From positions 22,851 through 86,850 of the IMG/VR virus record IMGVR_UViG_3300020160_002696: 64,000 nucleotides of DNA; one strand, 5' to 3'. Below the pieces are notes generated by a model. That model was not told where the DNA came from. It saw nothing but the letters and a program-made list of their open reading frames with translations, and did not search any database. This DNA is from a virus. Position numbers and translations under genes: made by a program. Shown piece by piece: positions 939-45,701 of the stretch (the first letter of the stretch is position 1; each line of letters starts with the position of its first letter).

Positions 939-1230
939 ATTCTTCTGCTTCTCCAAAGTAATAATCTAAATCTATTTCATCTAAAGTATTTATAATTTCA
1001 TTGTAAGGCACTAGCTTTTCTACTATTTCTAAAACTAATTTGTTATAACCTTTCCAGTTTTCAATTGAACATCCAAGAATTTCTTCCAATGTTTCATCTA
1101 CTGTTAAGGTAACAAATTGATTCTTATAGTAAAAAGTGGCCTCATAGTATTCATCTTCATAATTCAATGATAGAATTACTAATACACCATCTTCTATTTT
1201 ACCTAAATATTCAATTATATCAAATTTCAT
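937..1230 (-). CDS. Hypothetical acidic protein
   Basis: 97-aa ORF, TAATG coupling with the upstream gene. Confidence 0.75.
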   Translation of the reverse strand: MKFDIIEYLGKIEDGVLVILSLNYEDEYYEATFYYKNQFVTLTVDETLEEILGCSIENWKGYNKLVLEIVEKLVPYNEIINTLDEIDLDYYFGEAEE

Positions 1231-1454
1231 TATCCTAAAATAGTTTCAATTTTTTCATCTCTTTCTTCTTGAGATAAATTTTTTAAAAATCCACCTCTTA
1301 TTAAAGTATTCATAATACTTATAGCTTGTTTTGTTCTACCATCAACATATGAACTCATCATATCTCTATAATAGTCATGTATATTTCTTCTCTCATCTTC
1401 TGTTTTCAGACTTGATACTTTATCAAGATCCAAATAATAATCTTCTAACTTCAT
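1230..1454 (-). CDS. Hypothetical protein with C-terminal RxxKIxxILG motif
   Basis: Likely start ATG 1454 (MKLEDYY), which avoids overlap with the upstream gene; ends EERDEKIETILG. Confidence 0.75.
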   Translation of the reverse strand: MKLEDYYLDLDKVSSLKTEDERRNIHDYYRDMMSSYVDGRTKQAISIMNTLIRGGFLKNLSQEERDEKIETILG

Positions 1455-1461
1455 TTTATAA

Positions 1462-1731
1462 TTATATTTTTTCTCCAACAACAAATTCCAATTTATGAAA
1501 TTTATTATCAGTTCCAGTAAATACAATTTGAATTTTGTCAACATCAACAAATTCTTTTGCCATACCAGTTACTTCATTAATCATAACATCTTTTTTATAG
1601 ACAACATCAATTGATGGTTCTTCTCCTAAAAATCTACGCATATCTTCTAATATCTTTGATATTTTCCAATCATCATTTTTGAAATCTATATTAGACATAT
1701 ATTGTCTAATTGAGTGTTCTTTTAAATCCAT
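1462..1731 (-). CDS. Hypothetical protein
   Basis: 89-aa ORF in a co-directional operon. Confidence 0.75.
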   Translation of the reverse strand: MDLKEHSIRQYMSNIDFKNDDWKISKILEDMRRFLGEEPSIDVVYKKDVMINEVTGMAKEFVDVDKIQIVFTGTDNKFHKLEFVVGEKI

Positions 1732-1747
1732 TTTTATATTTTATTTT

Positions 1748-2080
1748 TTAAAAACTACCTTTATCTAAGTAGTATGTATTGTTGTTTGTTATTAGTTCAA
1801 AGTTATCATGTAATGTTTGACAGCGTTCTTGGAATGATAATAAGTCTTCGTCAGTTAAATTAAACCATTCACCTCTTACTTTTTTGTTTTTAAAGGCTCT
1901 ATGTAAACTTGCTTCTATCTTTGTTCCCCACTTTGACCTAAAAGAGTCTATTATATAAAATTCTGATGCATTACCAGTCTTGAACTCTTTAATTCTTTCA
2001 TCTATACTTCTTTTTGTGTAACCTATTTTGTGTAGTTTCATACCATTAATTTCAGAACACACTAAGTAAATATTTATCAT
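1748..2080 (-). CDS. GIY-YIG superfamily (T5orf172/MUG113-like) protein
   Basis: IYLV..KIGYTK..ERIKEFKTGN..IEASLH..RGEWF pattern. Confidence 0.8.
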   Translation of the reverse strand: MINIYLVCSEINGMKLHKIGYTKRSIDERIKEFKTGNASEFYIIDSFRSKWGTKIEASLHRAFKNKKVRGEWFNLTDEDLLSFQERCQTLHDNFELITNNNTYYLDKGSF

Positions 2081-2093
2081 AAGGTATATATTA

Positions 2094-2486
2094 CTACCTC
2101 ATGACCCTCTTTTTAGTTTTCTTTATAGGTTTTCTATATATCTCTATTAATCCATTTGAATATTCAATTCTCTCATAAAAATATTTAATTGATACTAAAT
2201 TATGTTTTCTAACTATCTCTAATCTACCAATCACTTTAGCATCTTTTATATTTACTATGTAAGGTCCATTCTTTAATTTTCTATAGTTTCTCAAAACAGT
2301 ATCACAAACTTCTCTTCTTATAAGAGGTCTTGATTTATAATTAGAATAAACTACCATTGAATCAGAACCTCTGACATTACTTATACTTTCCATTCCATCA
2401 TAACCATGGTTATAATATTCAACTTTTTTCTGTGAATAAACAAATGTTGTTATAAACAAAAATAATAATATACTAATCTTTCTCAT
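2094..2486 (-). CDS. Putative exported protein with N-terminal signal peptide
   Basis: Likely start MRKISILLFLFITTFVYSQ (Bacteroidota-style signal peptide ending before Q). Confidence 0.65.
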   Translation of the reverse strand: MRKISILLFLFITTFVYSQKKVEYYNHGYDGMESISNVRGSDSMVVYSNYKSRPLIRREVCDTVLRNYRKLKNGPYIVNIKDAKVIGRLEIVRKHNLVSIKYFYERIEYSNGLIEIYRKPIKKTKKRVMR

Positions 2487-2643
2487 ATATGGAAACTCCA
2501 GGACTAATAAATATAGATTCATTCTTAGGTGGTAAACCTAATATTCTTCTTATTTTAATTTTACGTAAATTATTCTTAGGTATTCTGATGTATGTATTGT
2601 CAGAATAAGTGGTATAAACACCAGGTTTCATATAGACTGACAT
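2473..2643 (-). CDS. 56-aa mini-protein with sheath-like (S/K)PGV motifs and RKIKIRRILG
   Basis: Not in the ORF track: MSVYMKPGVYTTYSDNTYIRIPKNNLRKIKIRRILGLPPKNESIFISPGVSIYEKD; TAATG-coupled to the upstream gene and fills the gap exactly. Confidence 0.7.
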   Translation of the reverse strand: MSVYMKPGVYTTYSDNTYIRIPKNNLRKIKIRRILGLPPKNESIFISPGVSIYEKD

Positions 2644-3098
2644 TATATTGTAGTTGAATTTGTTGCACCATAAACAAAATCCATATAGAATAGGTGACCA
2701 CTTGGACCACTTGGTTTAATATAATCAGGATGATCCTCAGTCTTCATTTCCTCAAAATCTTTACCTTCAACAAGAGCATCAATTTTTCTATCTCTATTTT
2801 CTATCTTAACTTCTTGTTTGATTTTCTTCATTTCATCACCAGAATTACCACCACCTATTGGTGCTACTGATACTAAATCTTGTCCTATTGTTTGAGCAGC
2901 AACTCTCATTGCAATTGGTAGTAAACTACCATAATCAGGTTGTGAAGTTATTATACTATCTGGTGCAGTAACTATTTCATTAGTGGCATGTAGTTCAGCA
3001 TATTGTGACATCCACTCTTTTTTATCTTCTGAGATTTTCATACTATTAAGTACTGAATCCCATTTCTTTAGTGTTTCTTCTTTGTTTAATTTTTCCAT
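2643..3098 (-). CDS. Truncated major-capsid-protein (gp23-like) paralog, N-terminal fragment only
   Basis: KKWDSVL, LLPIAMRVAAQTIGQDLVSVAP and SGPSGHLFYMDFVYG resemble the gp23 N-terminal region; only 151 aa. Confidence 0.7.
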   Translation of the reverse strand: MEKLNKEETLKKWDSVLNSMKISEDKKEWMSQYAELHATNEIVTAPDSIITSQPDYGSLLPIAMRVAAQTIGQDLVSVAPIGGGNSGDEMKKIKQEVKIENRDRKIDALVEGKDFEEMKTEDHPDYIKPSGPSGHLFYMDFVYGATNSTTI

Positions 3099-3139
3099 AA
3101 AAAAAGTTTTCTATTTATATAGAAAACTTTATAATATGT

Positions 3140-3529: not shown

Positions 3530-3536
3530 AGTATTT

Positions 3537-4975: not shown

Positions 4976-5030
4976 AGTCTATATATTAAATTATATGATT
5001 ACTTTTTTACTTTGGTTGTGTACATGTATT

Positions 5031-5183: not shown

Positions 5184-6544
5184 TAGCTTATATTTATTTT
5201 GAATCTTCCACTATAAGTAACACCTGCAATTGTTGAGAATGTATATGAACTAATTTTCAAGTTTTGTGTTGTACTTAAAGTTAAATCTTGTAAAGTTATT
5301 GTTGTTGATGCATTGGCAAATCTACCAAATGTAGATAATAGTGATATATTTGCGGATGATCCTATACCAATTACATCAAAATCAATAGATGATCTTTGAG
5401 TTGTATCACCATATAATGAATATGAACTTGTTCCAACTCTAGTAAGAATTGGTGTAGTAGTTTTTATGGTATCTGTTTTGATTTTAAAATTGACTGGATT
5501 TCTTAATTCTGTATAACAAAATCTACCATCAGGTAAACTAATACCAGTAGTTCTTAAATCTAATGTGAATGAATCAGTTAAATTAAATTGTTCACTTACC
5601 ACCATCATATCAGGTGTAAAAACTATAGAATTTTCTGTAGTTGTAATAGGTAGTTCAACTATAAAACCCTGAAATACACCAAGTACACCAAGTGTTGATG
5701 TTGAGGTTGTGTTTGTATTTGGTGAGTATTGATTACTATAAAAATAACTACCACCAACGGATCCATTTGTTCTTAACCATTCATACATTATCCCAGTTAA
5801 AAATGAATTAGCACTCATAAATTTATTCATATCTATTGGAGCAGAATAAGGATTTGATATAAGTATATATGAAAGTGAATTAATTGAATTTTTCTCAAAA
5901 GGTATTCTTATAACACCAGAATTGAGCTTTCCAGTAACACTAACATTATTTGTAGTTATAGTCCAAGGTGCAGGTGTTAGTGAGAATGTATTTGGTGTTC
6001 TGATTAAAAATCCAGTTCCAGGTATAAATATACTTGCTGCAACATTAACACCCACATTGGTGGCATTAAAGTAGTAAAATTCAGAATGTAAATTTGAAAG
6101 AGGATTATATACATAAAATCTATTACTTAATGTTCCAGTTGATAGTGATTGTGTAGTTTTACCACCTATTGGATCACCCAATTGTCTATAATCTAATCTA
6201 GCTACATTAAAAGGTAAAGTTCTTGATATAGTAAGTTTAACACTTGTTGTATCAACATTAGGATTATATAAAGCCAATGCTCCATTACTGGATATGTTAA
6301 AAGTTACCCCAGAGGCAGCCTGTGTTATGTTTCTATTTACTCTAATATATGTATTTGTTGATATTGTAATTGTTCCACTATCTAAAAATAAATCTAAACA
6401 ACTTATACTACCATGAGTAGCTGTTGTATATGTACCAGCTATTCTTGCTATCATATTTACATTTGGAGTACCATTATTCCAAGAAGAACCATTCCAAGTT
6501 GTTGTAGTTCCAAATCCCAATGTAGATGGAGTAATATTTCTCAT
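5183..6544 (-). CDS. Putative virion adhesin / receptor-binding protein resembling Flavobacteriia surface proteins
   Basis: TTTWNGSSWNNGTP, LISNPYSAPIDMNKF and QGFIV motifs; S/T/N-rich beta protein at the end of the fibre operon. Confidence 0.55.
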   Translation of the reverse strand: MRNITPSTLGFGTTTTWNGSSWNNGTPNVNMIARIAGTYTTATHGSISCLDLFLDSGTITISTNTYIRVNRNITQAASGVTFNISSNGALALYNPNVDTTSVKLTISRTLPFNVARLDYRQLGDPIGGKTTQSLSTGTLSNRFYVYNPLSNLHSEFYYFNATNVGVNVAASIFIPGTGFLIRTPNTFSLTPAPWTITTNNVSVTGKLNSGVIRIPFEKNSINSLSYILISNPYSAPIDMNKFMSANSFLTGIMYEWLRTNGSVGGSYFYSNQYSPNTNTTSTSTLGVLGVFQGFIVELPITTTENSIVFTPDMMVVSEQFNLTDSFTLDLRTTGISLPDGRFCYTELRNPVNFKIKTDTIKTTTPILTRVGTSSYSLYGDTTQRSSIDFDVIGIGSSANISLLSTFGRFANASTTITLQDLTLSTTQNLKISSYTFSTIAGVTYSGRFKINIS

Positions 6545-8298
6545 TATGCAAATTTTAATTTTCCACTTACTATAACTTCTGGACTAGATGCAGAATAAAC
6601 TAATATATCTGCTAGTGAGTTAGCTCCATATGTAGTAGCAACAACATCACTTGTTGTACTAATAACTACACCTGATCCAACCACAGTTATTTGTCCTGAT
6701 GACTTTTGTAATAATGTAATTGATGTTCCTTCTACAAATGTTAAAGATGAGGTTAGTAGTAGGTTTATACTAGCAGTACCAGTATAAACTAATGTCTTTA
6801 AAAAATCATTATCTGTCACTGTGTAAGTTCCTGAAATAATACTTGAAGTTATGTTACTAAAAGAGTAATATTGACTTCCAGTTGGACCTTGACTTCCAGT
6901 TGGACCTTGACTTCCAGTTGGACCTTGACTTCCAGTTGGACCTTGACTTCCAGTTGGACCAATATCACCAGGTACACCAACTGCCCCGGATAAGTTAATT
7001 TGCCAATTAGAGTATGTTTGACCTGACAATCCATTATCCTCTGTACATGTAACACTCATTGTTCCAGTCAATGGAAAGTAACTATTAATAATAGCATGAA
7101 AATGGTCAGTTGGATTATCATTAGGTGATACTATTATAGTTTGTGATGGTGTATATGCTAATGATGTACCAACTAAAAAATCTCTCTCAAATCCAATTTC
7201 TGGTATAGTAAAAGTATCTGATGAAGTAGTTGAGTATCTATCACCATCAGCACCAGTAGGACCTTGTGGACCATCAGTACCAGTAGGACCTTGTGGACCA
7301 GTAGTACCTTGTGGACCAGTAGGACCATCAGCACCAGTAGGACCTTGTGGACCATCAGTACCAGTAGGACCTTGTGGACCATCAGCACCAGTAAGACCTT
7401 GTGGACCAGTAGGACCTTGTGGACCAGTAGGACCTTGTGGACCAGTTGCACCAATAAAAACACTATTATTTATTAATAAAGTATCTTGATTACTGGATAA
7501 AATTAAAGGAGATGCAGTTGTACCTAAATTAATATTACTTACAACTAATGATTCACCATCAGTTGATAAAGGAACACCACCAATATAAATTGTTTGTCCT
7601 GAAACATGTAAACTTTTCCATTGTGATGCACTTGTTCCTAAGTTGTATATACTATCTTGAGATGGTATAATATCAGTTATAATATTGGTAAATCTAGATT
7701 CTACATAATTTATGATATAATTTTGTACATTTTTATCAATTAACAAAGGAACTTTTTGAGTTAAAATATCTATTTGCTCTCTTAATTTAATTAATGATAA
7801 TTTTGACTCATTTGAAGTAGAAAACTCTAAAGTAATTATTCTATTACTCTTTAGATTTATTTTTAATAAATTACCAGATACATTAGTATTATTAATAGTA
7901 AATGGATCAATAGTATATTTTACAACTAAATCTATACCAAGTATTTTAATATTTCTATCTGATTGTGCTAAAGGTCTTAAAAAAGTATCATAACTATAAG
8001 GAGCAGTTGTATAACCAACTACAGGTTGTGAATTGTCAATATAATCATTTGTTTGTAACAATGTTGATATTTGTTCAAGTAATATAGATTTTGCTAAAAT
8101 AGGCTCATCAGTATTGATAAAGTCTAATTTAATTTCTTTACTACTTTTTAAGATAATTCTAAGTAAATTAACTTCGTCTATAACATCAGTTATAAATGTT
8201 GGTTTAACAGTATAAGTTAAACTACCAGTATTATCATAAAATTTAATGTTTTTATCAGAACCAATTGGCTTTAAGAAACTATTACTACTATAACTCAT
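6544..8298 (-). CDS. Collagen-like tail/capsid fibre protein
   Basis: Two Gly-X-Y tracts ([12 protein letters not shown]); duplicated N-terminal module. Confidence 0.8.
6871..6960. repeat. Five perfect 18-bp tandem repeats (encode GPTGSQ)
   Basis: TTGACTTCCAGTTGGACC x5. Confidence 0.95.
7242..7452. repeat. Collagen GXY-encoding 9/18/27-bp repeats
   Basis: Recurring CCAGTAGGACCTTGTGGA units. Confidence 0.9.
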
Positions 8299-9853: not shown

Positions 9854-9867
9854 TATTTATATTATTT

Positions 9868-13733: not shown

Positions 13734-14141
13734 TTACTGAGGATTTGTTTGTAACATCTTAACTATTTCCATAAAGGCCTTTTCTGTACCTTTAATAGTA
13801 TATTCATATAAACCATATGCATTTACTTCTGTAGGTGCTTGGTCATAGAATTTAACACCATTGAGAACTTCATCTATATCATTTCGGTATTTAAGATAAA
13901 AATCATATATATCAGCATCATTTATAAATCCTTCAACTTTAACATCTTCTGGATTCTTTTCAAATGATTCAACAAAGGAAGCAAACTCTCCACCACTTTT
14001 AGTAATAGTATTATCAATCATCTTTTTTACTTCTTCTTTAAGTTCAGTAAACTTATTTGAATCTAATGATTTAACACCTGGTGTCTCATCAATATTGGCA
14101 TCATCTGCCTCATTTACAAATTGTGTATATCTTTTTATCAT
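13734..14141 (-). CDS. Hypothetical protein with N-terminal leader motif
   Basis: Starts MIKRYTQFVNEA; TAATATATA 4 nt upstream. Confidence 0.8.
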   Translation of the reverse strand: MIKRYTQFVNEADDANIDETPGVKSLDSNKFTELKEEVKKMIDNTITKSGGEFASFVESFEKNPEDVKVEGFINDADIYDFYLKYRNDIDEVLNGVKFYDQAPTEVNAYGLYEYTIKGTEKAFMEIVKMLQTNPQ

Positions 14142-26619: not shown

Positions 26620-26849
26620 TATTCTTTAGTTATTTTATAACCTAATTTTTTTATCATTTCAGTTACATCTAATATTAGATTTGTGGCTAAATCATGTGTC
26701 ATTACAAATCTACCATCATTATCATCTATAATAGATTTTATTTCACTTGTATAGTTCTTTCTAAAAGAAACATAGTCTTTATTAGAACTATCAAATTTAT
26801 TTAGTATTTCCTTGTTATCTATAACCTCATTAAATTTCTTTATCTTCAT
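26619..26849 (-). CDS. Small protein with N-terminal leader motif
   Basis: Starts MKIKKFNEV; TAATATATA upstream. Confidence 0.8.
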   Translation of the reverse strand: MKIKKFNEVIDNKEILNKFDSSNKDYVSFRKNYTSEIKSIIDDNDGRFVMTHDLATNLILDVTEMIKKLGYKITKE

Positions 26850-28068: not shown

Positions 28069-28791
28069 CTATAATAAGATATTTTGTTCACTCTTACCTT
28101 TTTTAAAGAGATCAAAACTAATATTCTTGAATATTACAAATAAGTCTTTTTTATGTTTATTTTCTCTTGATAGATAATGTTGTGAATTTGTATCTTTTAG
28201 ATGCATATCTAATTTTTGATCCATTATCTGTAGAGGACAATGAATTTTATAAGTATGTCCTTTATATTCAAAGGTATTATATCTAACATCATTATCTAAG
28301 AAATAATCAACTTTGTAGATGTATTCATTACCAAATACTTTTATTAAGCAATTTACTACTAATATAAAGGGAAATAAAAAACTATTTAAAAATGAATTTA
28401 TAGTTACTTCTTTTCTATAAACATGTTGTTTATATCCTAATCTATTTTCAGAAAAACCAACATCACCACTATATGAGTGGTCATTATAATAATGTGCATT
28501 TGGATATCTGTCTTTATCTTTGATAAGAACATCAATATCATTACAACTTCTATTTATTAGACCATAAAGATTTAATGCAAAAGAACCTGTGATAACATCA
28601 TCAGGACAAACTATTTTTAAAAAATCAAGCTCATTTTCATGAACTTCCATATTCACAGGTGATACTGAAAATTTAACATCATCAGTAGTTATCACTTGTA
28701 TCTTTAAGTCTCTTAAAGCACTCTTTGGCTCAAAGTCTATTACCCAACTTGGGGTATCATATATTCCCATATCATCTGTAGTTTCAAACAT
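28069..28791 (-). CDS. Nucleotidyltransferase-fold protein
   Basis: ITGSFAL..LYG...DIDV (GS + DxD) and C-terminal KHKKDL. Confidence 0.65.
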   Translation of the reverse strand: MFETTDDMGIYDTPSWVIDFEPKSALRDLKIQVITTDDVKFSVSPVNMEVHENELDFLKIVCPDDVITGSFALNLYGLINRSCNDIDVLIKDKDRYPNAHYYNDHSYSGDVGFSENRLGYKQHVYRKEVTINSFLNSFLFPFILVVNCLIKVFGNEYIYKVDYFLDNDVRYNTFEYKGHTYKIHCPLQIMDQKLDMHLKDTNSQHYLSRENKHKKDLFVIFKNISFDLFKKGKSEQNILL

Positions 28792-29150: not shown

Positions 29151-29834
29151 ATGAAACACTTAAAAAAGTTTAATGAAAGTAAATCAGAAATGCCATTGGA
29201 AGACTACTTTGTAGAATTTGTAGATGAAGGGTTTACTATTGAAAGAGAGTTAAATCAATTCAAACTTAAATATACTGGAGAATATGATTTTAGTCAAACA
29301 CTTGAAATGTATAATGATGTAATCTCTAAATTACAAGCTTATGGTAGAGATATAACTAAAACAGACTTATCATATAGAAAATCTGTTACAAATATTCTTA
29401 TTGAAGTTAAGAATAATATTAAACCTAATGATGCTATTGAAATTACACTTAGAGGTGAAAAATTAAAACTAATACCACATGCTTATGCAGTATATGGTAG
29501 TCCACAACCTCAACAAAGTTATCATACTAATGATGCAGGTAGAACAGTAAAACTTGGTAAACCAAGACCACCATATGTTAATACTATAATATTATTCTGT
29601 AAAGATGAAAATAATAGAAACTATAATATAACTTGGGAAAATAGATATGGTAATGAACTTTCTAAAGAGGATATTAGAGCAAAAGTACAAAATACAAATA
29701 TTAATATTGATTTAGAAAATGCTTCTAAAGTAATAGAAACTATCAAAAAGAATGAAATTGAGGCAAGATATGGAACTGAAATAATGCTTGATGTATTTAC
29801 TGAAACAATTACTCCAGAATTACTTACTAGATAA
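29151..29834 (+). CDS. Hypothetical protein with N-terminal leader motif
   Basis: Starts MKHLKKFNES; TAATATATA at 29137-29145. Confidence 0.85.
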   Translation: MKHLKKFNESKSEMPLEDYFVEFVDEGFTIERELNQFKLKYTGEYDFSQTLEMYNDVISKLQAYGRDITKTDLSYRKSVTNILIEVKNNIKPNDAIEITLRGEKLKLIPHAYAVYGSPQPQQSYHTNDAGRTVKLGKPRPPYVNTIILFCKDENNRNYNITWENRYGNELSKEDIRAKVQNTNINIDLENASKVIETIKKNEIEARYGTEIMLDVFTETITPELLTR

Positions 29835-30261
29835 TCTGACTAATCTTATTGTATCTTGCTATTGACTTACTAAATACTGATGCTTGTTCAGCCATACTTT
29901 CACACTCTGATTTTACATATTGCATATCTCTATAAGTGCCACTTAATCCAAAGACACTATCTTCATTTAGTAAAAAATAAGGTGTTAAATCTCCATAATG
30001 TGCACAATCAAATCCAATGACCCAATTATTATTATCATCATATGAATTATATGTTAGACCACCATGTGCTCTTATATTAAGTTCATCATATCCAATACCA
30101 TATAAAGAACTATCTCGTGTTAAAGTAATATATCCACATAAAGCTTTTAATCCATTTCTATGTATAGAACACTCAATAATGACACCATTACTACAGGTAT
30201 AATTCCATAGTAATGTGTCACCTTCTTTTTCAATCAGTTCCTTTAATTGTTCTTTATTCAT
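29827..30261 (-). CDS. Conserved phage hypothetical protein (CGY..HGGLTY..GFDCAH family)
   Basis: Characteristic motifs; ends ARYNKISQII. Confidence 0.75.
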   Translation of the reverse strand: MNKEQLKELIEKEGDTLLWNYTCSNGVIIECSIHRNGLKALCGYITLTRDSSLYGIGYDELNIRAHGGLTYNSYDDNNNWVIGFDCAHYGDLTPYFLLNEDSVFGLSGTYRDMQYVKSECESMAEQASVFSKSIARYNKISQII

Positions 30262-30678
30262 ATAGTAAATCCTGTTTGTAAATTGTCAATAAACCTTTGT
30301 GGTAGATAAACATTCTTTAATCTGATTGCTGGTTTGAAAAGAGGTGCAATTTCCTCTACTGTAAAATAAGCTAAGTTACAACCTAACTCAACCACATAAA
30401 ATGTTAAGTGAGTATTTTCTTTGGCAAATATAATAAAATTATCTATACCTTGTTTAATTTCATCTAAAGTAACTGGATTATAATTACTTCTTAATTCTTT
30501 TGTTACTATGGCATATGATTGACCTTGTAAACCTTTAGATTGACCATAAATAGCACCAAATTTATTTCTTGCAGTTAATGCTGCTCCTCCGACCATGTCT
30601 TCCTTGTCGGTTAGATCCAAACGTGAAGACTTCATTTTCTTTTAATTCTTTAATATATTTAGGTGTTATTCTTTCCAT
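30258..30678 (-). pseudogene. A1S_2505-like (macrodomain-related) protein split by a +1 frameshift
   Basis: ATG 30678 gives MERITPKYIKELKENEVFTFGSNRQGRHG; the family continuation GGAALTARNKFGAIYGQSKGLQGQSYAI lies in the +1 frame. Confidence 0.7.
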
Positions 30679-31013
30679 ATATCTGCAAATGTTGGTTTAT
30701 AAGTAACTTTAGGATTTTCATAACCCAAAAGTTCATCAATCAATTTATTTCTTCTTTCTTGTTTTGAATAGAAAGAGTTCATATCAATTATTTGATATGG
30801 AAAGTATAGATTTATACTTTTTCTTCTTCTGAAAATTGGACCTGATATTATTTCTTCATAAAAATCCTTTTTTACATAAGAAAAATTATTACAATCATCA
30901 TAATACCAATCATAATCATCATAATAGTCATAATAGTCATACCACTGAATAAACTCAAGGTCTAATTCACGTCTAACTACATCATACTTATCTTTTTTAC
31001 TAGTCTTCTTCAT
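30666..31013 (-). CDS. Hypothetical protein (YD-rich) with RRNKLIDELLG motif
   Basis: 115-aa ORF in the operon. Confidence 0.7.
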   Translation of the reverse strand: MKKTSKKDKYDVVRRELDLEFIQWYDYYDYYDDYDWYYDDCNNFSYVKKDFYEEIISGPIFRRRKSINLYFPYQIIDMNSFYSKQERRNKLIDELLGYENPKVTYKPTFADIWKE

Positions 31014-31386
31014 TAAGATGTTTTACAATTTTGTCAATTCTCCAATCTCTTATGTTTATTTTGAAATCTTCAAATGAATTAGATTGTCCTAATACAGTAA
31101 TTCTTTCATTTATTTGTTCAATAAGTCCAGCAATTTCAACATCTTTAGTTTTGCCTTTACCATCATAAACACATTCAATTTTTGTTGGTTCATCAGTTGC
31201 TACAATCCACATTGTTATATTGCTATATATATCAAACTGATTTCTAACATCATGAATATATTCTTCTGCTCTTTGTCTTGACATACCATTTACACATATA
31301 TAAAATACAAAGATTGGATTATCTAAATTTAATTCAATTTTTGGTGGTTGTTGGTAGTTATATGCAAAATTAATTGATGCTGTCAT
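31000..31386 (-). CDS. Hypothetical protein
   Basis: 128 aa; near-terminal IRDWRIDKIV. Confidence 0.75.
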   Translation of the reverse strand: MTASINFAYNYQQPPKIELNLDNPIFVFYICVNGMSRQRAEEYIHDVRNQFDIYSNITMWIVATDEPTKIECVYDGKGKTKDVEIAGLIEQINERITVLGQSNSFEDFKINIRDWRIDKIVKHLNEED

Positions 31387-31414: not shown

Positions 31415-31843
31415 TTAGTCTATTAAGTTTAGTAAGTGTTCTACTCTATAAAATATCTTAGTTTTAGCTTCTTCTTTTGTTAAAAAACCACACCAATCTA
31501 ATTCCTCAATCTGTAACATTTCTTTTGGTAAAGTTTCATCTGACAAATCAATCTCTGAAATATCATTGATATAAACTTTGAATAAATAAAGTTCTTTATA
31601 AATCTTACCTCTCTTATCATTATAAAGTATAACAATTGGTTCTTTATCAATGATTCTATCTTCTGTTATCTCAATAGAAGTTTCTTCTTTAAGTTCTCTT
31701 ATGGCAGCTTCTATTTGACTTTCACCTAATTCTATACCACCTTTAGGAAATGAATAGGTATTAGACCACCTTGCATTAGTTGGATGACTTAAAAGTAACT
31801 TGTTATTATTTAGAATAATTATTATTCCTGCTGATTTTTCCAT
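31415..31843 (-). CDS. NUDIX hydrolase
   Basis: PKGGIELGESQIEAAIRELKEETS. Confidence 0.9.
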   Translation of the reverse strand: MEKSAGIIIILNNNKLLLSHPTNARWSNTYSFPKGGIELGESQIEAAIRELKEETSIEITEDRIIDKEPIVILYNDKRGKIYKELYLFKVYINDISEIDLSDETLPKEMLQIEELDWCGFLTKEEAKTKIFYRVEHLLNLID

Positions 31844-32238
31844 TATATTCCTAAGTCATTTAATTTTGCTTCTCTTGATAATGCTTTTTTTGCATCTGCT
31901 GGTATATCACCAACAAATCCATCCCAGTTTTTGATTTTATTTATTGCTTGGTTTGCAACAATTACATTTTTAATTTCTCTTTTAACTTCATCTGCTTCAA
32001 GATTTATATTAACTAAAGCACCACTATTTTCATTTATACAGACAAGTTCACTGGTTACTTTTCTTTCAGTTGTACCAAGACCAAACCAAGTAGTTCTTTC
32101 AGTTACTTTTTCAACTTTATTATATACAAATACATAATGATAATTATTACTCCAACCCTTTTTAATATTAAAGTAATAGGTTTTACCATCTTCAAATAAG
32201 AATGGTGTCATTTCAACTATAATTTTATCTTTTTCCAT
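31843..32238 (-). CDS. Hypothetical protein with C-terminal REAKLNDLGI
   Basis: 131-aa ORF in the operon. Confidence 0.75.
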   Translation of the reverse strand: MEKDKIIVEMTPFLFEDGKTYYFNIKKGWSNNYHYVFVYNKVEKVTERTTWFGLGTTERKVTSELVCINENSGALVNINLEADEVKREIKNVIVANQAINKIKNWDGFVGDIPADAKKALSREAKLNDLGI

Positions 32239-32241: not shown

Positions 32242-32859
32242 TTAATTAAATGTTAATTTATATATTTCTTCTATTGCTTTTATTCCATTAGGTTTTATCT
32301 CTCTTGTTCCAATACCTGCAAAGTTTTCATAACTTATTTTAAGAGGTTTTGTGACTTCAATAAACTTTAGTGAGGTATATGACCATCTAAACCATTTGTC
32401 TTTATCCTGGTCAAATACATAAACAAACTTACCATTATTTATGGCCATTTGAACTGCATAACCTGTACCACCATCAACTACTTGAAACTCTGATTTATTA
32501 TAAAATCCTTTTGAACCTTTTTTACCAGGTTCTACTATAGTTCCAATTGCAAATACTTCATCAGAATATTTTACTTGAGACCAGTTTCTTGCTAACAAGT
32601 TCATAAACTTATGAATACCATATCTACTTAAAACTCTATTTGCTTTAGTTATTTCTTTTACTCCTTCTTCATAATCAGTATCACTAATTTCTACTTTATT
32701 TTCAGTAGTATGATACTTTGTTTTGTAAGAATATGCCTTTGTCTTTACACCATAGTTGGCTCCTATGGTTTCAAAATAAGTATCACTTCCAATTGCTCCA
32801 CCAGAATGACAAACTAATCTGTCTAATCTGATTGGTGTATTTCCAAATATATCTATCAT
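32242..32859 (-). CDS. SLOG-like (DprA/YspA-related) Rossmannoid protein
   Basis: HSGGAIGSD, RN, GGTGYAV and AGIGTR motifs. Confidence 0.6.
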   Translation of the reverse strand: MIDIFGNTPIRLDRLVCHSGGAIGSDTYFETIGANYGVKTKAYSYKTKYHTTENKVEISDTDYEEGVKEITKANRVLSRYGIHKFMNLLARNWSQVKYSDEVFAIGTIVEPGKKGSKGFYNKSEFQVVDGGTGYAVQMAINNGKFVYVFDQDKDKWFRWSYTSLKFIEVTKPLKISYENFAGIGTREIKPNGIKAIEEIYKLTFN

Positions 32860-33197
32860 ATTCCCAATTCTTTTAATTTTATATCTCTTGTATATACTAC
32901 ATAGTCTTCTGCTTGTGTAATGAAGTATTCATTCATTTCTTGTTCAGTAAAGTAATACCATTTTACTCTTTCTGAGTATGGTTTATTCCACCAATCTTTC
33001 TTATCAGATCCAAAAAATTCATCTTCAACACAGAAACCATAACCTTCTTTATCAGTTGCAGCATTCCAAGTTAAGTCACCACAACCTTTTATCTTGTAGT
33101 GACTTTTTAGTTTTAATGTTTCATATTGTTTTATACAAACAACACTATCTCCCATTTCAAATCTATCTTCTTTATACATGGTGATCAACTTTAACAA
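32856..33197 (-). CDS. Hypothetical protein with C-terminal RDIKLKELGI
   Basis: Likely start at MYKEDRF; GDSVVCIK pattern. Confidence 0.7.
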   Translation of the reverse strand: MLKLITMYKEDRFEMGDSVVCIKQYETLKLKSHYKIKGCGDLTWNAATDKEGYGFCVEDEFFGSDKKDWWNKPYSERVKWYYFTEQEMNEYFITQAEDYVVYTRDIKLKELGI

Positions 33198-37877: not shown

Positions 37878-37910
37878 GTAAAAACCTCTAAGAAATTAGA
37901 GGTTTACTTT
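37878..37910. terminator. Bidirectional terminator
   Basis: AAACCTCTAA-GAAA-TTAGAGGTTT at a convergent junction. Confidence 0.8.
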
Positions 37911-38423
37911 TTTTTCACCAAATGATAAACTCATTTTGTAATACCACACACACCAATAAAAAATAGTGTATAATGAGCCAATCATTGTACGTATATGAAA
38001 ATAATGTTTAATTAAACCATCAATTACTTGAAATACAATCATTAGTAAAAGCATTATAATCTGAACTTTATCTGACTTCTTTGAGTATAGTAATTTCTTT
38101 ATCTTATTAAGTCTATTACCATTAAAGAACTTATGACTTGTTATTCCTTCTAACTTATCATCCCTATTACAAGAAACACATAAATGAAAATCTTCTCTTT
38201 TTGGATCCTTTACTGCTTTTTTATATATTTCATCTAATTTATCATACTTTTCTTGTGTATCTAAATTTTCAGTTAAGTCAATTTTACAAGAATAACATCT
38301 TATACCTTGTTTAACATCCCAACTTACATTTTTTCTTTTCTTAAAAAGAATGTATAATCTTATACTTATTACTACTATACAAAGTAATGATATTGCAGAA
38401 ACTATTGTTGATAATATATCCAT
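37896..38423 (-). CDS. Membrane protein with CxxC..CxxC zinc finger
   Basis: N-terminal and two C-terminal hydrophobic helices; CYSC/CVSC followed by NRDDKLEGI. Confidence 0.7.
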   Translation of the reverse strand: MDILSTIVSAISLLCIVVISIRLYILFKKRKNVSWDVKQGIRCYSCKIDLTENLDTQEKYDKLDEIYKKAVKDPKREDFHLCVSCNRDDKLEGITSHKFFNGNRLNKIKKLLYSKKSDKVQIIMLLLMIVFQVIDGLIKHYFHIRTMIGSLYTIFYWCVWYYKMSLSFGEKKVNL

Positions 38424-38881
38424 TATCCTAAAATTAAAGATAAGAATTTATCTCTCTTTTCTTGTTTAGAAAGAGATTTAATACACTCTGGTCCTAAACC
38501 ATTTTCAATACTTGATGGAACTGTTAGAACTCTACCACATTTACCACAAGTACCTTCATGCCAAACTTCAACAAAGTCTTGAAGTTTACCTATTTTAAGT
38601 TTATTTAATACATAGTCAAATACTTTAACTGATTGAGCTTCTGATGAAACAGCAGATTTTTTACCATGTCTGTAAACACCTTCAACAGCAGTTCCTAAAT
38701 AAGTATAAGTATCTGGACCAGTTAATACACTAACAAAGAAAAGATTACTATCTTTGTCTTTAGATTTTTTTACTTTAAAAGTAAATCTGTTTTCAGTTTT
38801 GGTATTAACAACTGTAAATGTTGAATTACCTGCAAACATAAATTTTAAAGCATCTGTGTTATTTAATTTGTGTCCTGACAT
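38423..38881 (-). CDS. DUF6011-like zinc-binding protein
   Basis: CGKCGRVLTVPSSIENGLGPEC; TACTTTTG box at 38900-38907 upstream. Confidence 0.8.
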   Translation of the reverse strand: MSGHKLNNTDALKFMFAGNSTFTVVNTKTENRFTFKVKKSKDKDSNLFFVSVLTGPDTYTYLGTAVEGVYRHGKKSAVSSEAQSVKVFDYVLNKLKIGKLQDFVEVWHEGTCGKCGRVLTVPSSIENGLGPECIKSLSKQEKRDKFLSLILG

Positions 38882-38931
38882 ATATCTTATTTGTTTCTAC
38901 AAAAGTACAAAAAAACTTTTATATATACACT

Positions 38932-39555: not shown

Positions 39556-39576
39556 AGAACATGTAGTTTACTATAT

Positions 39577-40296: not shown

Positions 40297-40308
40297 GATG
40301 GGTTTTGT
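40281..40308. terminator. Bidirectional terminator, same core as 21244-21269
   Basis: ACAAAACCCATC-ATAA-GATGGGTTTTGT. Confidence 0.85.
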
Positions 40309-40634
40309 TATATCTTTAATATTAAACTAATTACTTTATCAACCTCTGATATGGAATATATTCCTAAAGTATCAGTAATATTAAACTCTTCTTTTACTAT
40401 AGATAAATTTTTATCAATCAATGATATTGAAATAAAAGGTAGATTTTTTTCTTCTCTTAATCCTTCAAGAAAAAATTTTACATAGTTATGATTATAAGTA
40501 ATACCTATTAATTCACGATTCTTCTGTAATTCATTAACAATTTTATGTAAAATATCTACCTCTTCTTTTTCTAATTGATTTGGATTCCAACTCCCCATTG
40601 TATCAAACATTTCATTAAACTTCCTTAGTTTCAT
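40308..40634 (-). CDS. Hypothetical protein with N-terminal leader motif
   Basis: Starts MKLRKFNEM. Confidence 0.8.
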   Translation of the reverse strand: MKLRKFNEMFDTMGSWNPNQLEKEEVDILHKIVNELQKNRELIGITYNHNYVKFFLEGLREEKNLPFISISLIDKNLSIVKEEFNITDTLGIYSISEVDKVISLILKI

Positions 40635-40647
40635 TTACTTAGTTGTT

Positions 40648-42825
40648 TTATTTTATTGCAGATAATTCATACTTAGGTCTTTTACCTGAGTTTTTCATTA
40701 TCCAGTTTAATGTTTCTATTTTAGAATCTTTTAACCTTTTTCTACTAATTTTAATCCAAGTAAAAATATCATCCCAATCACCATCACTTATTTTCTCAAA
40801 TAAACCAGCTTCTTTGAAATATTCTAAACATTCAATTCTACCATATTCAGCAGCCCATTTAATTATTTGGTTTCCTTTACCATCTAATAAATCCTGCCAT
40901 AATTTTGTTTTCTTAATATACTCCATTAATAATAAAAATGGTTCATAATAAGATTTACCAACATTATCTACTTTTGACCAAGTTCCTTTGTAACAAGCTC
41001 TTAATGGTAATGATTGACCAAAGTTAGGATCCAATCCTGCAGATAAACAGAATTGTAATGGTTCAACTGCATTAACAACATTTTTAAATATTTCACCATT
41101 CATCTCAGCACCATAAGAAACTAATAATTTAATCATATCAATTCCTTTAGCTCTTAATAAAGGTCCTTCTTCTTTTTTCTTTAATGTAGTAAGTGCTCCT
41201 AATTTAAGAATTCCTTCTACTTTTTTAATATCATCTTCATCAACTGCATTTTCAAGACATTTACCATTGTCTTTATTAATATCAGCAGAATCTTCTTTAA
41301 CTAATTTAGTTATTTCTTCTAATGATAATCCTGGTTGAACAATTTTTCTATTGGCTTGTTTAGCTCTTTCTTTTCTATCAATTTCTTCTTGAGACATTGG
41401 TTTAAGTAATGACCAAAGATCAACATCAATATTGTGGTCATTTTCATAACCATTTAATATTTCTTTAAATCTTGAGGTATTAACATGTGTATCACGTCTA
41501 TTATGTGTAGCTCTAACACTTTGCCCTGGCTCAATAGTAGTACCAATTGTTGACCAGTCATCTGTAAGAGGTAAATTAAAGTCATAAATATAATATTGTT
41601 TATTATTATAATTACCAACATAACTATCCCAGTTACCTAAACTATCTTTAATACAGTGTGCAGTATGTCCATTTAACATAACATTTGCAGAGTATGATCT
41701 AACTTCAATAATTAAGATACCTTCTTTATTAATTTCTGGATCAAATCTATCTTCTGGTTTATATGGATAAACAAACTCAGCACCTGATGCACCAAGTTTT
41801 GCAACACACTCATCAACTTTTTTACAAAAATCTAAGTATCTTCTTCTTACAATTCTAATTCTTCTTTCTTCTGGAGATTCACCTTCAATAACTTCATCTT
41901 TACTCATTTCAATAGAAGTTAAATATTGTTTAGCTGCTTTTAAAAACTCTTCAATATTGTGGTATCTTGGAAGTGTACTCATAAAGTGATAAGTGTTATA
42001 TAATGGATTAGGAATATCACTAACTTGTCCATTAATCATTTTAAATTGGAATGTGTCTAATGTAATACCACCAAAGAAAGCTTCTACATCTTTATCTGCA
42101 AGTTTATCAAATCCTTCTGCAATCTCTGCAAACTTTTCAGCATTCATTTCTGATATAGTTGCATAACTGGCTTTTAATTCAGAACTAACACTTAACTTAT
42201 CTGCAATTCTTTTAACTTTTCTATATTGTGCTAATCTATCTAAACCATCAGATAATTGTTCCATATTATTTGTAATATTAGGATCAATAAAATTTAAGTC
42301 AAATGGTTTTTTAACCAAACTCGGTTTATCTGCAGTACCTTTATTTACAGTAAGATTTTGTAAAATATCTTTATTCTTTAATAATTTACCATAAAGTGAT
42401 GATAAATCTTCAAGTGTACCTCCTTCAAAGAAATAGAAATAAACAAAGGCTGATAGCCAACCCATATTATCTTTATCTAATTGATAAGTTTTCTCATTTC
42501 CATTAGACATTACAACTTTAGTTTTTAATTCTCTTAAAGCCTTTAATTGTGGGTCTCCTTCAACTTGTCTTAATTGTTCAGGAGTTAAACTGATTTCTCT
42601 TATTTTTAACTTAATTTGATTTCTTTCTTCTTCATTGAAATCATTCAATGTAACAGATTTTCTTTCACCATGTTTAAGTTGTTGACCTAATTCACCATTT
42701 AAAAGCCCTAATTGTTGAGCAGCAGTTTGAACAAGGTATCTATCTTTTAGATATTTTTTTGCCTTATCTAAGTTTTCATTGATTGAATCTAATCCTAAAA
42801 ATTGGTTATATTTAGCTAATTTCAT
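40648..42825 (-). CDS. Large protein with N-terminal leader and C-terminal ankyrin-like repeats
   Basis: Starts MKLAKYNQFL; IKLLVSYGA, LSAGLDPN and WAAEYGRIECLEYF ankyrin-like helices. Confidence 0.7.
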   Translation of the reverse strand: MKLAKYNQFLGLDSINENLDKAKKYLKDRYLVQTAAQQLGLLNGELGQQLKHGERKSVTLNDFNEEERNQIKLKIREISLTPEQLRQVEGDPQLKALRELKTKVVMSNGNEKTYQLDKDNMGWLSAFVYFYFFEGGTLEDLSSLYGKLLKNKDILQNLTVNKGTADKPSLVKKPFDLNFIDPNITNNMEQLSDGLDRLAQYRKVKRIADKLSVSSELKASYATISEMNAEKFAEIAEGFDKLADKDVEAFFGGITLDTFQFKMINGQVSDIPNPLYNTYHFMSTLPRYHNIEEFLKAAKQYLTSIEMSKDEVIEGESPEERRIRIVRRRYLDFCKKVDECVAKLGASGAEFVYPYKPEDRFDPEINKEGILIIEVRSYSANVMLNGHTAHCIKDSLGNWDSYVGNYNNKQYYIYDFNLPLTDDWSTIGTTIEPGQSVRATHNRRDTHVNTSRFKEILNGYENDHNIDVDLWSLLKPMSQEEIDRKERAKQANRKIVQPGLSLEEITKLVKEDSADINKDNGKCLENAVDEDDIKKVEGILKLGALTTLKKKEEGPLLRAKGIDMIKLLVSYGAEMNGEIFKNVVNAVEPLQFCLSAGLDPNFGQSLPLRACYKGTWSKVDNVGKSYYEPFLLLMEYIKKTKLWQDLLDGKGNQIIKWAAEYGRIECLEYFKEAGLFEKISDGDWDDIFTWIKISRKRLKDSKIETLNWIMKNSGKRPKYELSAIK

Positions 42826-42838
42826 TTATAATATAATT

Positions 42839-44473: not shown

Positions 44474-44474
44474 A

Positions 44475-44741
44475 TTATTTAATTAAATTTTTAAGTTCTA
44501 TACCTTCTTCTTTAGTAACTCTAACTAATCTGTTAAAAACATCTTCTAAAGTTGCATCTTGTCCTGGTTGTTTTAGTTTTGCCAAAGGAGCATCTTCCTC
44601 ACTTGGTCTTTGTCCTGGTACTACACCTGGTCTTGAAGGTCTTGTTCTAGTTGGAGTATCTGTATCTGGTTTAACAACAGGTCTAGCTGGTGCAGTCATT
44701 GTAGATTCAACAAACTTTTCATATTTTCTGATATATTTCAT
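44475..44741 (-). CDS. Pro-rich small protein with N-terminal leader motif
   Basis: Starts MKYIRKYEKFVES. Confidence 0.8.
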   Translation of the reverse strand: MKYIRKYEKFVESTMTAPARPVVKPDTDTPTRTRPSRPGVVPGQRPSEEDAPLAKLKQPGQDATLEDVFNRLVRVTKEEGIELKNLIK

Positions 44742-44824
44742 AATTATGATTTTTATATTTTATATATATATTAAAAAGTTATATATCAAAAAATTATATA
44801 TAACAGAAAAAATAAAGATATTAT

Positions 44825-45355
44825 ATGAAAAAGTTCTCTTCTATTAGAAAAGTATATGAAGCTGAAGAAATGGCTTTGGCTAATCTTCCTCAGAATACTC
44901 AACAACCTGAAACGGTTATTGATCAAACAGGTAAAATTATACAACCTGAACCACAACCAGAAACTCAAGAAGGACCTGGAAGTCCAGTTTCACTTTTTTC
45001 TAAATTGTTTGAATCAAGAGAAATGGCACACATTTATCACTTACAAGTAAATGGTGAGCAAGGTTCACATGCAGCACATACTGCATTGAATGAGTACTAT
45101 GAAGGTGTATTAGATTTTATTGATGATTTAATTGAAACTTATCAAGGACAATATGGTATTGTTGATGGATATGATGTAATTGATACAAATGACACAAGAA
45201 CAAAAGAGAAAGTTGAATACTTTGAAGGATTAGTAGAGTTTGTAAAACATGCTAGAAAAGCCATCTCTGCAGAAGATACACACTTACAAAATATTATTGA
45301 TGAAGTTGTTGCTTTAATTTATAGAACACTTTACAAATTGAAATTTACTAAATAA
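44825..45355 (+). CDS. Ferritin/Dps-like (DUF5856-like) protein with N-terminal extension
   Basis: HIYHL..H.ALNEYYE...D.LIETYQG..LQNIIDE..TLYKL. Confidence 0.7.
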   Translation: MKKFSSIRKVYEAEEMALANLPQNTQQPETVIDQTGKIIQPEPQPETQEGPGSPVSLFSKLFESREMAHIYHLQVNGEQGSHAAHTALNEYYEGVLDFIDDLIETYQGQYGIVDGYDVIDTNDTRTKEKVEYFEGLVEFVKHARKAISAEDTHLQNIIDEVVALIYRTLYKLKFTK

Positions 45356-45359
45356 TAAA

Positions 45360-45384
45360 AAAACCACTCAAATTGAGTGGTTTT
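45360..45384. terminator. Bidirectional terminator
   Basis: AAAACCACTC-AAATT-GAGTGGTTTT. Confidence 0.85.
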
Positions 45385-45565
45385 CTTCTTTTAATATATT
45401 TCTAATCTTTCTTTTTCTTTTTTCATTCTTGGTTTCAATTATAAGAGTAGAATATCTACTTGTTATTGACTTACTTAGATTAGGAGTTCCTGACCAAGTT
45501 GCAGCCATTGTTTGTATTGTATATGGTAACCAAACAACTCCTATATTATTTGTTAAATTCTTCAC
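45368..45565 (-). CDS. Mini-protein resembling the gp23 capsid C-terminal segment plus KRKRKIRNIL
   Basis: GVVWLPY....P...ITSRYS pattern; GTG start overlapping the upstream ORF. Confidence 0.6.
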   Translation of the reverse strand: MKNLTNNIGVVWLPYTIQTMAATWSGTPNLSKSITSRYSTLIIETKNEKRKRKIRNILKEENHSI

Positions 45566-45701
45566 TATTAAGTATTTTCAATATTTTAATTTTTCTCCAG
45601 ACATTTCTATTTGACTTCCACAATTTCTTTACATAATTTGCAAAATCATCTTCTCTTCTGTGTTTATCACCATCTTTTCCCCAACCTCTTGCAAATGACA
45701 T
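45546..45701 (-). CDS. 51-aa basic protein with RKIKILKIL motif
   Basis: Manual translation MSFARGWGKDGDKHRREDDFANYVKKLWKSNRNVWRKIKILKILNSEEFNK. Confidence 0.6.
   Translation of the reverse strand: MSFARGWGKDGDKHRREDDFANYVKKLWKSNRNVWRKIKILKILNSEEFNK

Follow-up and report, generated by a model that had tools for sequence, protein, structure and literature searches.

An Arg-anchored C-terminal motif on many unrelated small proteins of a huge-phage subclade, a candidate docking helix

The stretch of DNA analysed here (the window, 64,000 nucleotides) comprises bases 22,851-86,850 of the 86,850-bp viral contig IMGVR_UViG_3300020160_002696. A number of its small proteins carry, usually at the C-terminus, a short shared peptide (the tag) with the usual form R-[DNE]-x-K-[IL]-x-x-[IL]-[LG] and 0-10, usually 0-3, residues before the stop codon. 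The tag is found on about one gene in six of the closest complete relatives. It is very probably a functional signal at the level of the protein, and we consider the chances evenly balanced that it serves as an Arg-anchored C-terminal docking helix, specific to this clade, for a common partner. The first-pass annotation of this DNA had reported the motif on about 13 small proteins. The tag itself is real, but that scale was too low, as it occurs clade-wide on roughly 12-18% of all open reading frames (ORFs).

For the window we counted motif matches in 82 greedily called ORFs (20,232 aa) and in 500 within-protein shuffles of them. The strict motif R-x-x-K-[IL]-x-x-[IL]-[LG] was observed 7 times compared to 0.18 ± 0.43 times in the shuffles, and 0 of the 500 shuffles reached 7. 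Without the last residue there were 13 matches compared to 1.46. The reversed motifs showed no such excess, with 0 matches for the strict form (0.20 in the shuffles) and 1 for the form without the last residue (1.50). Across the whole contig (105 ORFs) we placed the same four residue classes over 8 positions in all 180 arrangements. The target arrangement had 19 matches, which was the top of the 180 (mean 2.9). Within the last 25 residues we detected 11 matches against a mean of 0.58 over the arrangements, and shuffling only these last 25 residues gave 0.41 ± 0.62 matches with a maximum of 3 in 2000 shuffles. Both the excess over background and the C-terminal enrichment expected from the first-pass annotation are thus clearly visible, and the within-protein and local C-terminal shuffles, the scrambled arrangements and the reversed motifs together rule out chance or composition as the source of the motif.

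The contig has a G+C content of ~25-30% and is classed in IMG/VR as linear with a CheckV completeness estimate of 15%; it is a putative ~87-kb fragment of a Mahaphage-type huge phage. Its products include very large virion proteins, tail-fibre-like proteins, RNR, a DnaB-type helicase, a UvsX-like recombinase and an SbcC-like protein. The nearest database relatives are the uncultured huge phages LR745206.1 (634,780 bp) and LR756502.1 (642,428 bp), both of which are syntenic with the contig. A megablast search of 12 kb of the window against the phage collection returned no match, and PHROG and Pfam scans of the large window proteins found little. The "Mahaphage" clade is described in the main text of PMC7162821 with genomes of 634, 636, 642 and 735 kb and Bacteroidetes as predicted hosts. 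We found no printed description of the tag in the literature searches made or in passages of that paper, in whose main text "C-terminal", "chaperone" and "Clp" have 0 occurrences.

In LR756502 the pattern R-x-x-K-[IL]-x-x-[IL], with K at +3, occurred 135 times compared to 21.6 ± 11.6 times for the 180 scrambled arrangements, and 111 times compared to 5.6 times within the last 25 residues. The ORFs of whole relatives were called by one greedy procedure (at least 40 aa, longest first) and are ORFs rather than curated genes. LR756501 was sampled over 400 of its 735 kb and Lak-B1 (MK250020.1) was read with TAG as Gln. The ORF coverage of Lak-B1 rose from 0.74 under code 11 to 0.92 with this reading, which agrees with the stop-codon recoding that Lak phages are said to use. 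The Hsp70 of Lak-B1 is split over two ORFs.

For the comparison across genomes we used the looser core R-x-x-x-[IL]-x-x-[IL] at most 10 residues from the ORF end. It was observed in 13 of 105 ORFs of the contig, 183 of 1002 in LR756502 and 159 of 956 in LR756504. Seven more distant jumbo or huge phages carried it on only 1-3.5% of their ORFs, which equals background: LR756500 (15/705), Lak-B1 (8/665) and the sampled LR756501 (8/568) among the huge phages, whose major capsid proteins are 36%, 30% and 51% identical to that of LR756502, as well as Tenacibaculum phage PTm1 (5/325), Flavobacterium phage MaF61 (7/199), Chryseobacterium phage MA9V-2 (9/275) and Sphingomonas phage PAU (6/299). These last four, the cultured relatives, are all without the tag. 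The reversed motif was found at 1-4% in every genome. As the distant relatives are at background, the tag defines a subclade and is not a trait of AT-rich proteomes; a generic property of AT-rich or Bacteroidota jumbo phages is ruled out by the same seven genomes. Among 50 IMG/VR loci found via the UvsX-like protein (54-100% identity), C-terminal tags with K at +3 were present in 31 and absent from the other 19.

The tag depends on protein size, with ~30% of the 60-150-aa proteins tagged compared to 0-4% of those above 250 aa. Its density peaks in the first and last 50 kb of the records, where 32 of 114 and 52 of 91 ORFs are tagged in LR756502 and 51 of 150 and 30 of 84 in LR756504. Away from the record ends the density is ~10-15%, and there are runs of up to 18 consecutive tagged genes. 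The listed tagged genes of LR756502 are mostly on the plus strand at the low end of the record and mostly on the minus strand at the high end.

We built logos from 107 C-terminal copies with K at +3 in LR756502 and from 99 tags in LR756504, counting the Arg as position 0. In LR756502 position -4 is K or hydrophobic, -1 is I, L or V and 0 is R. Position +1 is D in 53 copies, N in 22 and E in 15, and +3 is K; further along the tag we observed L (63) or I (44) at +4, I (69) or L (38) at +7 and L (58) or G (30) at +8. Positions +2, +5, +6 and +9 are variable and polar, and the commonest stop position is after +9 (49 of 107 tags). The consensus of LR756504 has K at +1 (60 of 99), I, K or R at +3, nearly always I at +4, and L at +7. 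Its stop lies one residue earlier than in LR756502, with 35 of 99 tags ending 1 residue before the stop. The final residue is variable (I, K, N, D, E, S, G). At position 0 Arg was observed 158 times in LR756502 and Lys did not appear among the eight commonest residues there (each at least 8), while LR756504 had 104 Arg compared to 15 Lys; there was no enrichment of Arg at this position in tag-negative genomes. The specificity for Arg together with the lineage-shifted consensus suggests specific recognition.

Helical-wheel arithmetic on the LR756502 logo places positions -1, 0, +3, +4, +7 and +8 on one face, with R0 and K+3 in its middle. In the AlphaFold2 model of the protein encoded at 32856 (107-aa form) a C-terminal helix at residues 89-104 includes the tag (mean pLDDT 90.5). 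In the model of the DUF6011 protein a helix at residues 139-151 (pLDDT ~48-59) follows a low-confidence linker. The tag is thus a predicted helix in both proteins modelled.

The carriers of the tag are unrelated to each other. The 106 tagged bodies of LR756502 fall into 104 BLASTP clusters (E 1e-3), which rules out paralogy of the carriers. Pfam families were detected in only 6 of the 107 tagged LR756502 proteins and all of them are different (riboflavin kinase, DUF6011, BtpA, a weak PolB, DUF2158 and a Zn ribbon). No family in this Pfam scan covers the tail and NCBIfam gave the same picture; in the scans made there was no curated profile in Pfam-A, NCBIfam or PHROGs covering the tag segment. 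When a profile of 49 tags was run against the sequences of all PDB chains, the single match was to an unrelated protein (E=1.3).

That the tag is appended to recognisable domains, as the first-pass annotation had it, holds up well. The DUF6011 match ends at residue 137 of 152 and the phrog_2164 match at residue 126 of 144, in both cases before the tag. Distant homologues have no tail and their alignments stop before the tag, those of phrog_2164 in Staphylococcus phages extending to residue 125 only. Within the clade 16 of 20 DUF6011 homologues have a tail, one of them of the canonical R-x-x-K-L type, and 4 of 20 end just after the zinc motif. The domain ends, the tailless distant homologues and these 4 tailless clade members rule out the tag as an integral part of known domains. 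At the same time the tag is well kept in orthologues (18/19, 13/14, 8/8, 7/9 and 19/22 for five families) although the x positions and the ending vary, and judging from these alignments it is under purifying selection. At an E-value of 1e-10, 166 of 1002 LR756502 proteins have a homologue in LR756504, but among the tagged ones only 2 of 183. As LR756504 has 159 tagged proteins of its own, the tagged repertoire must have been almost fully replaced between the lineages while the tag persisted.

We also compared the codons of the tag with those of the genome. The tag Arg codons of LR756502 are AGA in.73, AGG in.18 and CGN in.09 of the cases, compared to.71,.15 and.14 across the genome. Other tag codons are biased towards A in the third position (AAA.82, ATA.75-.92, TTA.5-.66). 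This bias is that of untagged gene ends with a close downstream start (AAA.80, ATA.60 and TTA.52 over the last 12 codons) and is less pronounced where no same-strand gene follows closely, which is the case for 21 of the 107 tagged genes. Among these 21, perfect copies are found before convergent genes or gaps of at least 100 nt. In general, gene ends of LR756502 with a same-strand gene at most 10 nt further on show AAA at.80 compared to.61, GGA at.53 compared to.36 and TTA at.52 compared to.38. Translation in Bacteroidota initiates at A-rich, Shine-Dalgarno-poor regions, and the bias towards A-ending codons at gene ends fits such regions. In the window the final Gly codon of the tag is GGA, 5-7 nt before the next ATG. 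We conclude from the codon evidence that selection acts on the tag as a peptide, that its last codons carry a generic overlay from initiation regions, and that duplication or gene conversion has contributed somewhat.

We suggest that the tag is a short linear motif which forms one face of a short alpha-helix, usually at the end of the chain. This face would consist of a hydrophobic residue at -1, the invariant Arg at 0, K or a hydrophobic residue at +3, I or L at +4 and +7 and L or G at +8. The Mahaphage-type subclade would repeatedly attach the tag to fast-evolving and mutually unrelated small accessory proteins, the helix would dock via its conserved face into a groove of one common reader, and the whole tagged repertoire would be handled as one class. 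The first-pass annotation had already proposed a docking helix that recruits diverse proteins to one partner or compartment. The predicted helical, appended and protein-level nature of the tag and its single conserved face agree with that proposal, but the docking partner is something that we infer, and a protease adaptor, a compartment or a hub protein would each be a guess. Whether one common partner reads the tag is in our judgement an open contest with neither side ahead, and that this partner is encoded by the phage we propose only tentatively. Since the consensus shifts between phage lineages, a phage-encoded reader is more likely than a host-encoded one. It is rather unlikely that the partner is a protease or chaperone system.

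The candidate readers that we considered are the phage-carried ClpS, the Clp ATPase with ClpP, PrkA with YeaH/DUF444, and Hsp70 with J proteins. The protein-handling set of the relatives, as seen across LR745206, LR756502 and LR756504, comprises an Hsp70 (E 1e-255), 2-3 J proteins, 2-3 ClpP paralogues, a two-ring Clp ATPase of 707 aa without a Clp_N domain, and a ClpS of 94 aa; Lon was not found in the relatives searched. The contig itself encodes a J protein with a J domain and CxxCxGxG zinc-finger repeats (G000:20761-21483, outside the window). ClpS was present in all 3 tag-positive huge genomes and absent from the 7 tag-negative genomes searched. By its family model, PrkA occurs in each of the 3 tag-positive huge genomes and in none of the 3 tag-negative huge genomes searched. 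The PrkA of LR756502 also had no BLAST homologue in the four cultured relatives. No clade-specific untagged proteins are better conserved than PrkA (AAA_PrkA and PrkA_C) and DUF444/YeaH; PrkA has 67% identity between lineages that share only 51% in their capsid proteins. Three tagged mini-ORFs (47, 40 and 61 aa) lie interspersed with the genes for PrkA (641 aa) and DUF444/YeaH (420 aa) at 273831-277446 of LR756502, and one of the three is a homologue of the window ORF 45368-45565. The PrkA of Bacillus subtilis is reported to be an ATP-dependent protease (PMC9512850). As our leading but weak guess, the reader may belong to the phage's own protein-handling machinery and the tag may be a turnover or handling signal.

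A number of observations weigh against this reading. The search among the proteins of the relatives singled out no reader of the tag. The match of ClpS and PrkA with the presence of the tag rests on one clade and thus on about one independent event, and 73 proteins share the same pattern. Hsp70 is rejected as a specific correlate as it is also present in the tag-negative Lak-B1, and so is the two-ring Clp ATPase, which is also encoded by the tag-negative LR756501. PrkA was found in at least 132 IMG/VR viral stretches, often as a trio of PrkA, a DUF444-sized and a SpoVR-sized protein. Among the 80 PrkA loci that we kept, those with less than 80% identity had 0-2 tags in their ~20-kb flanks, and the gene order around PrkA is not conserved within the clade. 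The frequent occurrence of PrkA in viral contigs with tagless flanks and the unconserved gene order weaken the case for PrkA with DUF444 as the reader. In the AlphaFold2 model of the 32856 protein the tag helix has high confidence (pLDDT 86-89) and the tag may therefore pack on its own protein. Other points concern the DNA. The Gly codon at +8 is GGA in 70% of the cases, compared to a baseline of 36% and above the 53% of generic gene ends, and thus the last residues are shaped in part by the start region of the next gene. The nucleotide identity between tags has a mean of 17.4 of 30 compared to 16.4 ± 0.13 after codon resampling, and 54 tag pairs are identical at 24 or more of 30 positions where 16.5 would be expected. 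Because of this excess similarity we take it that some DNA-level process, such as recent duplication, gene conversion or position-specific codon bias, contributes.

We weighed four other explanations and judge all of them less likely than a docking helix. The tag resembles the MinD-type membrane-targeting sequence, and a generic basic amphipathic C-terminal helix could target small proteins to the inner membrane in the manner of MinD and FtsA without any protein reader. The extreme C-terminal position, the predicted helix and the hydrophobic residues at +4, +7 and +8 flanked by basic residues are all as expected for such a helix. In LR756504 the frequent Ile at +3 even yields a hydrophobic face of the i, i+1, i+4, i+5 type, and the lineage change from D to K at +1 would be easily tolerated. 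However, Lys does not substitute for Arg at position 0, and the conserved face has R0 and K+3 at its centre. The tag has only 3-4 aliphatic and no aromatic residues, the lineage of the window conserves an acidic or amide residue at +1, and soluble enzyme domains (riboflavin kinase, BtpA) are among the carriers, so that we regard membrane targeting as improbable. Slightly less probable still is a role within or between the tagged proteins themselves, where the helix would cap small domains or tags would pair and co-assemble with no dedicated reader. It would be surprising if the same capping face suited over 100 unrelated bodies, random heteromers among at least 150 proteins would have no obvious use, and the tail of the DUF6011 protein is detached and modelled with low confidence. 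The 32856 family points the other way, as its tag is the end of a long helix (pLDDT 86-95), and the logo shows adjacent R and D/E residues that could form interhelix salt bridges.

The remaining two explanations turn on the neighbouring gene. The peptide could be the mere translation of a nucleotide-level feature, either the A-rich initiation region of the next gene or a joint of cassette-moving recombination. A same-strand gene follows within 10 nt in 70 of 107 tagged genes compared to 255 of 631 small untagged genes, and the GGA before the next ATG in the window, its overuse at +8, the small excess identity among tags and the runs of up to 18 tagged genes point in the same direction. Against this, 21 of the 107 tags, perfect copies included, end genes without a close downstream gene, Arg codons are chosen as in the genome at large, and the remaining synonymous biases are the same as at the ends of untagged genes. 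Internal and N-terminal copies are conserved as well, related Bacteroidota jumbo phages of similar G+C (0.30-0.37) do not have the motif, and the amino-acid identity at R0 is far above what a nucleotide requirement explains. We consider this origin quite improbable. A nascent-peptide signal acting in the ribosome tunnel at termination, for example by promoting re-initiation on the next overlapping gene, would account for the tight coupling of the genes and for the fairly constant distance to the stop (2 residues for 49 of 107 tags in LR756502 and 1 residue for 35 of 99 in LR756504). This distance in fact ranges over 0-10 residues, and neither the 21 tagged genes without a downstream gene nor the conserved internal copies would be served by such a signal, which makes it by far the least probable of the four.

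A docking helix would resemble several known tag and tail systems. Clamp-binding tails and the replication tails of T4 and T7 are likewise short peptides at the extreme C-terminus of unrelated proteins that are read by one hub. Clamp-binding motifs (the PIP box, the beta-clamp motif and the T4 gp45-binding tail) have a conserved Gln and/or paired aromatics, whereas the logos of the 107 and 99 tags contain neither and conserve R, K, I and L. The tag carriers are mostly ORFans and not DNA enzymes, with only one weak PolB-like match among 107, and a genome has at least 150 of them where a handful would be usual. A search of 3 records did not detect DNA_pol3_beta, and the gp45 model was silent there and also in control genomes. 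Degrons of the ssrA type or the basic ClpX type are also appended C-terminal peptides that mark unrelated proteins for one machine, and the relatives do encode ClpP, a Clp ATPase and ClpS. Such degrons depend on a conserved end and a free carboxylate, whereas the tag is followed by 0-10 variable residues with a varied last residue, is predicted to be helical and is conserved internally too, and Clp genes are also present in tag-negative relatives.

The effector repertoires of type IV secretion systems are similar to the tagged set in being large, fast-evolving, unrelated and mostly ORFan, in accounting for at least 10% of the genes and in sharing a C-terminal signal that outlives the individual genes. 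They differ in that the tag has no linked secretion or packaging apparatus and is a sharp Arg-anchored helix as opposed to a loose compositional signal. Encapsulin cargo peptides and the C-terminal helices of scaffolding proteins are short, sometimes follow a linker and dock on a shell of the HK97 fold; one tag carrier is a fragment of the capsid protein. Here the differences are that the tag profile has no solved relative (best PDB match E=1.3), that the tag-positive clade has no cultured member and that the tag phages have a separate T4-like N-terminal leader on other proteins. With the MinD/FtsA sequence the tag shares a short, basic and predicted amphipathic helix at the extreme C-terminus. 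MinD-type sequences have an uninterrupted hydrophobic face and interchangeable basic flanks, whereas the tag has a specific Arg, charges within the conserved face and no aromatics.

Huge phages have hundreds of small genes of unknown function, of which the tag sorts ~150-180 per genome into one class. It also provides a common handle for their joint study by one peptide, one reporter fusion or one point mutation (R0). A bolder and somewhat unlikely extension of the docking helix is a proteome-wide address system in a subclade of the largest known phages. Here one helix would mark about one gene in six, the whole quickly replaced accessory ("effector") repertoire, for a single reader encoded by the phage. 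This reader would either bring the proteins into the giant capsid so that they are co-injected, or see to their timed destruction or handling via the phage's own AAA+ machinery (Clp, or PrkA with YeaH), and reader and tag would co-evolve between lineages. If true, phages would have an equivalent of the signal-bearing effector arsenals known from secretion systems. A single reader, if it exists, would explain how a 640-kb phage manages its accessory proteome (timing, packaging or localisation) and would offer an orthogonal tagging system for Bacteroidota. For annotation, the tag marks real small genes and true stops where most ORFs lack homologues, and it could serve as a signature for fragments of the clade in metagenomes.

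An N-terminal leader, T4-like and of the type M-x-[IK]-K-[KR]-[FY]-x-[EQ]-F, also seems to exist in these phages. With a crude regular expression of our own we detected leader-like starts in 43 of the 1002 LR756502 ORFs, where the control pattern at residues 30-44 gave 15 matches, and in 8 of the 105 ORFs on the contig. The leader-like ORFs of the window are 13734-14141, 26619-26849, 40308-40634, 40648-42825, 44825-45355 and 62727-63233, and others lie outside it. The first-pass annotation saw the leader on none of its tag carriers and suggested a two-address protein-sorting system from leader and tag together. Leader and tag co-occurred in 5 ORFs of LR756502 compared to 7.9 expected (p=0.3), in 4 compared to 4.7 in LR756504 and in 1 compared to 1.0 in the contig. 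Co-occurrence is about as independence predicts, and consequently the two-address scheme is not supported by exclusivity.

All 13 peptides originally listed for the window are present in the translations of minus-strand ORFs, which are named here by their low coordinates. The strict motif fits 6 of the 13 (1230, 2473, 31843, 32856, 45368 and 45546), but all 13 fit the looser core R-x-x-x-[IL]-x-x-[ILV]. The register also holds for the copies at 30666 and 38423, which look shifted: their K is at +2 and their +3 residue is hydrophobic. The claim that five copies lie at the extreme C-terminus was accurate, as 0-1 residue follows them. Overall 8 of the 13 copies are at most 10 residues from the C-terminus and 5 (2473, 2643, 28069, 30666 and 37896) are internal. 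The seventh strict match of the window, absent from the original list, is a second copy in ORF 37896-38423. Three more matches within the larger proteins 6544-8298, 20258-21013 and 29151-29834 are compatible with background, and 5 further C-terminal or near-C-terminal copies lie on the contig outside the window.

All of the following features are on the minus strand. The 106-aa ORF 1230-1550 has a strict tag at 1236..1262 (residues 97-105, 1 residue after it). The 144-aa phrog_2164 protein (ORF 29827-30261) ends with the tag as its last 9 residues (29830..29856), which 3 of 4 clade homologues keep. In the 128-aa ORF 31000-31386 the tag at 31024..31050 has R in place of K at +3 and 7 residues after it, and is kept in 13 of 14 homologues. 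Strict tags are found at 31849..31875 in the 131-aa ORF 31843-32238 (1 residue after; kept in 7 of 9 homologues) and at 32862..32888 at the C-terminus of the 113-aa ORF 32856-33197 (kept in 18 of 19), in whose homologues endings of the LGI type interchange with ILN and VLS. The 152-aa DUF6011 protein (ORF 38423-38881) ends in a tag with F at +3 (38429..38455). Two strict and very basic copies, each with 7 residues after them, lie at 45392..45418 in the 65-aa ORF 45368-45565 (R-K-x-K type; kept in 3 of 3 homologues) and at 45570..45596 in the 51-aa ORF 45546-45701 (kept in 2 of 2). In LR756502 the homologue of the former is found two small ORFs downstream of the DUF444/YeaH gene.

The internal copies are in five ORFs. 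The 56-aa ORF 2473-2643 has a strict motif at 2539..2565 (residues 27-35, 21 residues after it), but this ORF shares 50 nt with ORF 2094-2522 and is without a homologue in the loci sampled, and is for these reasons uncertain as a gene. The 151-aa ORF 2643-3098 is a truncated paralogue of the first ~130 residues of the 556-571-aa major capsid protein of the clade and has the core motif (2769..2795) in a 48-aa insertion that is missing from the full-length capsid homologues. Its homologues in PTm1, MA9V-2 and MaF61 are annotated as major capsid protein, and LR756502 has the same capsid mini-gene (165 aa) with the motif kept. In the 240-aa ORF 28069-28791 the core motif is near the N-terminus (28687..28713, residues 27-35) and is kept in 8 of 8 homologues. 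The 115-aa ORF 30666-31013 has it at 30726..30755 (residues 87-96, K at +2 and L at +3, 19 residues after it). The two motifs of the 175-aa ORF 37896-38423 (38088..38165, residues 87-95 and 104-112) sit between a zinc-ribbon-like and a C-terminal hydrophobic part, and a motif is present in 19 of 22 homologues.

In LR756502 the signal of the family-B DNA polymerase is split between 120483-121919 and 254948-255340 (ORFs of ~474 and 515 aa), and one of the matches contains stop codons. The 474-aa piece begins with the tag-like M-T-R-D-E-K-I-K-K-I. Finally, a Nudix-like protein of 142 aa on the minus strand of the window (31415-31843) has a tag-like end of the form R-x-x-x-L-x-x-L-I-D, as does its counterpart in LR756502; this may be a tag or the last helix of the enzyme itself.

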